Source: Escherichia coli (GTDB taxonomy: Bacteria > Pseudomonadota > Gammaproteobacteria > Enterobacterales > Enterobacteriaceae). Taken from it: a stretch of DNA of 64,000 bases. Where the stretch lies: assembly GCF_051903065.1 (NCBI RefSeq), contig NZ_CP178438.1. The stretch is one strand, 5' to 3'. The first letter of the stretch is position 1, and the number at the start of each line of letters is the position of its first letter. A model generated the notes under the pieces. That model made no database searches and had not been told where the DNA came from. It saw nothing but the letters and a program-made list of their open reading frames with translations. Shown piece by piece: positions 16,472-16,502 of this stretch. Both the position numbers and the translations under genes were made by a program.

Positions 16472-16502
16472 CAGTGAGTCAGATGTAAGTTCTGACTCAC
16501 TG
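16472..16502 (+). other. perfect 12-bp stem-loop in the yciQ-rluB intergenic region / rluB leader
   Basis: cagtgagtcaga-tgtaagt-tctgactcactg; no downstream U-tract. Confidence 0.5.

Follow-up and report, generated by a model that had tools for sequence, protein, structure and literature searches.

A conserved stem-loop upstream of rluB as a candidate structural element of the mRNA leader in Escherichia coli and related Enterobacterales

The spacer preceding rluB of Escherichia coli, the gene of the 23S rRNA pseudouridine-2605 synthase (positions 16555 to 17430, + strand), harbors a perfect inverted repeat, which raises the question whether this symmetry is fortuitous, serves as a site on the DNA or belongs to the rluB transcript as an RNA structure. 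Within the window, i.e., the whole 64-kb stretch of E. coli DNA that was analysed, the stem-loop locates to positions 16472 to 16502 of the + strand and is composed of the 5' arm CAGTGAGTCAGA (16472 to 16483), the loop TGTAAGT (16484 to 16490) and the 3' arm TCTGACTCACTG (16491 to 16502). The original prediction of a perfect 12-bp stem closed by a 7-nt loop was found to be exact, all 12 pairs being Watson-Crick pairs, and the distances it gave, about 50 bp to the rluB start and about 130 bp to yciQ, were measured as 52 nt between the stem end and the rluB ATG (16555) and 129 nt between the yciQ stop codon (16340 to 16342) and the stem start. When folded as RNA, the stem-loop reaches -20.1 kcal/mol, which corresponds to z = -5.1 as compared to dinucleotide shuffles. 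Perfect stems of at least 12 bp with loops of 3-10 nt occur three times in the 64-kb window as compared to a mean of 0.03 per shuffle, the control being 60 dinucleotide-preserving shuffles of the window. The stem-loop is real and not a product of chance. Moreover, the element is single-copy and specific to the rluB locus, with a median of one place per genome among the 3976 E. coli genomes that possess the hairpin region. A scan of the E. coli window region against Rfam 15 (E <= 10) returned no relevant match to the stem-loop, and the scan of nine related loci at the gathering score returned nothing in the rluB leader, its matches being Trp leaders elsewhere, in three loci only. Our literature search yielded no paper tying rluB to a leader element, and the hairpin is regarded here as a candidate RNA element of this leader that has not been catalogued before.

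In the window, rluB is part of the gene order rnm-yciO-yciQ-rluB-cobO-yciK-sohB. The gene yciQ (14440 to 16342, + strand), encoding a DUF2207 protein, is frameshifted here, giving rise to two open reading frames (14440-15126 and 14918-16342), and a genome with an identical spacer likewise has it annotated as a pseudogene with a frameshift. The 5' part of its coding region contains a perfect 13-bp palindrome (14518 to 14546, GAGATCCCTTCTT-atg-AAGAAGGGATCTC), the chance improbability of which equals that of the studied hairpin, and a tandem 15-nt repeat at 16303 to 16332 (TGGCGGCGGCGCGGG/TGGCGGAGGCGGTGG) corresponds to the glycine-rich C-terminal tail of YciQ. Elsewhere in the window, a perfect 14-bp stem (1509 to 1540, GTCAAAAGCCTCCG-accg-CGGAGGCTTTTGAC) with A and T runs on its flanks resembles an ordinary bidirectional terminator. 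Within the species, yciQ behaves as a cargo gene that is present or absent along with the long leader: the long allele, consisting of yciQ and the 178-nt spacer containing the hairpin, was identified in 3976 of 5426 complete E. coli genomes (73%), and the short allele, in which yciO is followed by 100 bp and then by rluB, with neither yciQ nor the hairpin, in 1442 of the 5426 (27%). Comparison of both alleles (window 14413-16520 against positions 1435-1500 of locus L002) revealed the short allele to be a 66-bp replacement, whereby the alleles part directly behind the stop codon of yciO and become alike again from GACGCCTG (window 16521) onwards. This boundary falls on the invariant GNRA-tetraloop sequence described below, a pattern expected of homologous recombination. 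The short allele possesses a GC-rich hairpin of its own (AATGGCGC-tatacg-GCGCCATT), which differs from the studied one. Across Enterobacterales the spacer between yciO and rluB is a hot spot of unrelated cargo genes (loci L005-L088), examples being OprB in L087, EamA together with LysR in L088 and a divergent 555-aa gene in L039 and L054; among 80 Enterobacterales rluB loci, yciQ was found at this position in Escherichia only, the other genera having either nothing or unrelated cargo. For K. pneumoniae, five genes are placed there in an ortholog table (Kim et al. 2012).

The same 80 rluB loci from Enterobacterales species served as comparison set; the protein search for RluB returned enterobacterial RluB alone and none beyond Enterobacterales. 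Clear homologues of the hairpin were identified in about 25 of the loci, where they adopt the form CAGYGAGTTA-loop-TAACTCRTTG and end 17-21 nt before the GNRA motif. They were found in a sister Escherichia lineage, in a Klebsiella-type locus, Enterobacter, Kosakonia, Leclercia, Cedecea, Shimwellia, Pseudocitrobacter, Pluralibacter, Erwinia and Yersinia. The lower 9-10 positions of the E. coli 5' arm are homologous to CAGYGAGTTA of the other genera, and the loop varies freely in length and sequence among the relatives. In most homologues the helix comprises 8-10 weak pairs; the Klebsiella-type locus shares both the hairpin and its tail with E. coli, and the Yersinia homologue forms an irregular helix of about 23 bp with -20 kcal/mol. 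The original placing of a structure in the upstream leader region of rluB was supported, and the homologues lie at the same place.

A conservation and covariation analysis, which had been proposed along with the original prediction, revealed that the pairing is kept across Enterobacterales. It was based on a plain MAFFT alignment of 23 leaders, ranging from Escherichia to Yersinia and Erwinia, with both arms in register, in which two-sided changes were found at 9 of the 12 pairs of the E. coli helix. For this helix and the invariant GNRA helix together, 89.6% of the cells are paired in the 23 leaders as compared to 31-49% when the partners are slid by 1-3 columns, and the covariation score is 0.209 as compared to 0.03-0.09, the observed values being reached by none of 500 shuffles; these controls are mutually concordant and are to be read as descriptive rather than as a formal phylogeny-aware test. 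Independently, RNAalifold returned a 9-bp core helix as well as the GNRA hairpin. In the lower stem, CAGUGAG/CUCAYUG, the sequence itself is conserved, with the C-G, A-U and G-C pairs kept in 21-22 of the 23 leaders, and the upper stem and the loop drift. One pair is a G·U in 13 of the 23 leaders, and the helix as a whole counts about 37 G·U cells as compared to one C·A, from which it follows that the folded species is the + strand RNA and not a symmetric DNA site. Variation within Escherichia points in the same direction: the common E. coli variant C16500T in the 3' arm (present, e.g., in strain PMV-1; 3976 genomes compared) converts the pair G16474-C16500 into a G·U pair, and in the sister Escherichia lineage (L006) two pairs are fully compensated and the loop differs, the flanks being almost identical. 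Taken as sequence evidence, these patterns argue for selection acting on the pairing in the + strand RNA. When a covariance model was derived from the alignment, it identified precisely one + strand site in each locus, invariably upstream of rluB; for the 64-kb window it returned a single + strand site (16465 to 16538, 69 bits), the other match listed being a marginal one on the reverse strand, over the palindrome itself. A conserved position upstream of one gene and covariation-supported pairing, as expected of structured leader elements in general, were observed, and the comparison suggests that Escherichia has here its own version of a leader hairpin which, in many Enterobacterales, immediately precedes an invariant GNRA hairpin and the Shine-Dalgarno sequence. 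Like REP, BIME and ERIC sequences, the hairpin is a palindrome located between genes of E. coli, but it occupies one place per genome, is unrelated in sequence and has no second covariance-model copy in the 64 kb; membership in a REP, ERIC or MITE repeat family was rejected as the element is single-copy.

Whether the hairpin is transcribed with rluB depends on the position of the rluB promoter. A promoter-like block locates to positions 16386 to 16401 (+ strand) and consists of TGTAGTAT and GTTGCGCC, i.e., a -10-like TAnnnT followed by a GC-rich discriminator; the E. coli version of the block, TGTAGTATGTTGCGCC, is homologous to the TGTAGTATGTGCGGCC and TGTATAAT blocks found upstream of rluB in most genera. 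Such a TGTAnnnT plus GC-rich block recurs in most loci at 46 to 147 nt before the GNRA hairpin, and in many genera the TGTAGTATGTGCGGCC-type block is flanked by direct GAATCATT repeats. In Erwinia and in Pantoea-type loci the block is part of a consensus sigma-70 promoter (GTTACA-17-TATAAT) that follows the cargo terminator, and in an Erwinia locus the distance from this clear sigma-70 promoter to the downstream rluB is about 90 nt, the promoter being aligned with the E. coli -10-like block. As the block is a consensus promoter in these relatives, its E. coli counterpart probably represents the -10 element of rluB, followed by a GC-rich discriminator; the E. coli -35 region is poor. Transcription of rluB would accordingly start near 16400 and yield a leader of about 155 nt, and, judged by promoter homology, the hairpin would reside inside the rluB mRNA leader. 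A published list of constitutive RpoD promoters contains none in the yciQ-rluB spacer and places one between yciO and yciQ (Shimada et al. 2014). A promoter inside the hairpin or the linker was rejected, no consistent -10/-35 pair being found there. Likewise rejected as the rluB start was the entry 'yciL -51' (Mendoza-Vargas 2009 supplement), yciL being the old name of rluB: its -10 box maps upstream of acnA, at window positions 25466-25481, and the entry is apparently a labelling slip. On the opposite strand, a sigma-70-like promoter match (16621 to 16649, - strand) lies antisense inside the rluB 5' end, and a bicyclomycin-sensitive antisense 3' end was reported at MG1655 position 1326939 (- strand), corresponding to about 16642 of the window (Adams et al. 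2021).

The predicted order of elements in the leader is upstream hairpins, the studied hairpin, an A/U-rich linker, the GNRA hairpin and the Shine-Dalgarno sequence. The upstream hairpins (16409 to 16466, + strand), predicted for E. coli as CAGGCC...GGCCTG with an inner hairpin, followed by a small stem, are not conserved outside Escherichia. A larger inverted repeat (16381-16396 with 16457-16472) was treated as incidental, since its 5' arm overlaps the -10-like block and three changes in L006 are uncompensated. The linker TTGCACAAAAGCATATCA (16503 to 16520, + strand) is mostly single-stranded; its part AAAGYATAYCA is common to Klebsiella-type and Enterobacter-type leaders, and in several genera its position is taken by TTGTTTTTGAAAG, a U-tract. 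Starting 18 nt past the studied hairpin, the GNRA-tetraloop hairpin (16521 to 16538, + strand; GACGCCU-GGGA-AGGCGAC) was identified in 82 of 82 leaders: the motif GACGCCTG(T/G)GAAGGCGAC is found in every locus just before the Shine-Dalgarno sequence and forms a 5-bp stem with the GNRA loop GUGA or GGGA, GUGA being the loop in most other species. It has no Rfam match and is arguably more striking than the studied hairpin itself. It is followed by the Shine-Dalgarno sequence AAGGAAG (16544 to 16550) and the rluB start codon, which ends at 16557. In shape and sequence the GNRA hairpin, with its 5-bp stem CGCCU/AGGCG, is similar to boxB of phage lambda, which has the sequence GCCCU-GAAGA-AGGGC; unlike boxB, however, it possesses a tetraloop instead of a pentaloop, it has no boxA partner that is conserved across species, and it lies directly upstream of the Shine-Dalgarno sequence with no N-like or Nus-dependent context known.

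Considering the position of the hairpin between a promoter-like block and a coding region, a working terminator or attenuator has to be discussed, which would end yciQ or read-through transcripts or, prematurely, those of the rluB promoter. Relatives lend some weight to this idea, as TTTTTG follows the homologous stems in Kosakonia, Enterobacter, Leclercia, Cedecea and some Erwinia, the Kosakonia homologue was flagged as terminator-like by the terminator scan, and in the class-A leaders (Enterobacter, Lelliottia) the corresponding position is occupied by canonical GC stems with T-runs behind them; furthermore, the E. coli stem is very stable (-20 kcal/mol) and, with 6 of its 12 pairs being G-C, it is a GC-containing stem-loop as intrinsic terminators require. 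The original statement that the stem-loop has no U-tract and is not an obvious intrinsic terminator holds nevertheless: the 3' flank of the stem is TTGCACAAAAGC (tail UUGCACAAAAGC), the scan did not flag it, and Term-seq mapped no 3' end at the E. coli hairpin or elsewhere in the rluB 5' UTR, the only terminator listed for the gene under the growth conditions and thresholds of that work being the 3' one at MG1655 1327761, about window position 17464 (Adams et al. 2021). The U-tract is also missing in the Yersinia, Pluralibacter and Klebsiella-type homologues, and a stable hairpin with at least four T in 8 nt was found in 11 of 82 leaders only. Compared to known leader attenuators, the rluB leader lacks a conserved leader peptide and an alternative antiterminator pairing. 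A leader-peptide attenuator was rejected as the sole + strand open reading frame over the stem (16351-16488) is frameshifted in K-12, and the short open reading frames read by eye upstream of the relatives' hairpins vary in length and have no E. coli counterpart. Pairing of the 3' arm with the rluB translation-initiation region was rejected as well, the duplex energies being no better than those of shuffles (mean z -0.33; E. coli z +1.4). A functioning terminator in E. coli is hence judged unlikely. If the U-tract was lost, the hairpin might instead be a functionless relic, namely a decayed terminator travelling with the long allele, an idea consistent with its dispensability in 27% of the E. 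coli strains and with the fact that neither the literature nor the Term-seq tables give a transcript end or a phenotype for it. However, the pairing is maintained in Escherichia despite loop divergence, with two compensated pairs and one G-C to G·U change, and the stem was lengthened and not eroded, which makes a mere relic improbable.

A further explanation takes the helix as a processing site of RNase III or another double-strand-specific enzyme, by which the rluB leader would be matured or destabilised. The uninterrupted perfect 12-bp helix, the irregular helix of about 23 bp reached in Yersinia and the fact that structure rather than loop sequence is kept would suit a helix-recognising enzyme. 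In vivo substrates of RNase III usually comprise about two helical turns, for which 12 bp are short, and a near-continuous helix of about 20 bp is found neither in E. coli nor in most homologues with their 8-10 bp, Yersinia alone coming close in length, though irregularly; processing of this kind is therefore given a small probability. More specific is the idea that the hairpin and the invariant GNRA hairpin together constitute a protein operator on the RNA, e.g., for autoregulation by RluB, which has an S4 domain, or for another ribosome-biogenesis factor. Here, it is to be considered that the lower stem is conserved in sequence and not in pairing alone, that the adjoining GNRA hairpin, which directly precedes the Shine-Dalgarno sequence, is invariant throughout the 82 loci and that the RluB substrate helix is a GUGA-tetraloop hairpin, too, as verified by sequence; this 23S rRNA hairpin we take to be helix H93. 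The resemblance to H93 is loose, though, and whole lineages replace the studied hairpin by an unrelated one and retain the GNRA hairpin, so that any operator would more likely be the GNRA hairpin alone. A two-hairpin operator is doubtful for these reasons, and a similarly small probability is given to the view that both hairpins form a regulatory RNA conserved across Enterobacterales, which a protein such as RluB would bind as a partial H93 mimic. Least probable is a role as DNA-level palindrome, i.e., as a transcription-factor operator or a recombination site. The dyad symmetry is perfect in E. coli, and the palindrome is close to the right-hand end of the stretch in which the two E. coli alleles differ. 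In addition, the motif TAANNNNTTGATW was found in 22 of 82 loci as compared to 0.24 expected from shuffles; it lies 26-40 nt upstream of the GNRA hairpin (loci L033-L084), overlaps the 3' arm of the relatives' hairpin and fits the IHF consensus on the opposite strand, for which reason part of the 3'-arm conservation in the relatives may be DNA-level. Yet this motif is absent from E. coli, G·T mismatches break the symmetry in most homologues as well as in the major E. coli variant, and the boundary of the alleles falls on the invariant GNRA sequence. The protein-binding palindrome that had been suggested is disfavoured accordingly, as the homologues and the major E. coli variant pair via G·U in the + strand (about 37 as compared to one C·A). 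The cargo of related loci always sits upstream of the conserved -10-like block and never at the hairpin, which speaks against the palindrome as a recombination site and led to the rejection of a cargo-integration site at this position; an attC-like site of integrons was rejected because the core motifs, as generally known, do not fit.

The reading we prefer is that of a selected cis-acting RNA structure of the rluB 5' leader, to which, on the comparative evidence, an about even chance is assigned, and any specific role of the hairpin is proposed with less confidence than this. According to the suggested model, transcription of rluB would be driven by the conserved -10-like block, which lies about 80 nt upstream, and this would place the hairpin within the mRNA leader. 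In several genera the stem together with UUUUU would make the leader terminator- or attenuator-like, and the E. coli hairpin may have descended from, or may be interchangeable with, such a leader terminator-type hairpin, whereby its U-tract would have decayed and its stem would have been extended to 12 perfect pairs. Due to the decay of the U-tract, the E. coli hairpin most likely no longer terminates. Instead, it would probably serve as a structural module, which, together with the GNRA hairpin, brackets the A/U-rich linker. Under this model its most likely role would be to insulate the GNRA/Shine-Dalgarno region, i.e., the ribosome-binding region, from the variable upstream RNA and to set the stability or the processing of the rluB leader and mRNA. 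Any such function has to be replaceable, since the hairpin is missing in 27% of the E. coli genomes and in whole genera. At the same position, short-allele E. coli, E. albertii and Citrobacter possess an unrelated GC-rich hairpin, which suggests that a stable hairpin is needed at this spot and not this very sequence. Among known systems, the closest in their working may be the stems of leader terminators or attenuators, or the hairpins that stabilise an mRNA from its 5' UTR. The E. coli hairpin shares with intrinsic terminators and leader attenuators a stable stem-loop between a promoter-like block and a coding region, with UUUUU directly after the stem in several genera, but differs from the former in E. 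coli by lacking both the U-tract and a mapped 3' end. With the stabilising hairpins of the ompA type it shares the character of an autonomous, structure-constrained leader hairpin that is free in sequence as long as pairing is kept, and the equivalent hairpin of the short allele and of Citrobacter would lie almost at the predicted 5' end. In contrast to the ompA type, the E. coli hairpin is not 5'-terminal, being about 70 nt away from the putative transcription start.

rRNA-modification enzymes such as RluB take part in the assembly of the large ribosomal subunit, and hardly anything seems to be known of the regulation of their genes. If RluB did bind the two-hairpin leader, such binding would couple rluB expression to ribosome assembly. 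Should the hairpin prove inert, the locus still documents a leader terminator that loses its U-tract and yet keeps its stem. The natural dimorphism of E. coli, with a long leader plus yciQ in 73% and a short leader in 27% of the genomes, provides ready-made allele swaps, and a compensatorily preserved hairpin beside one that is invariant in 82 loci constitutes a concrete and testable candidate for the control of rluB.
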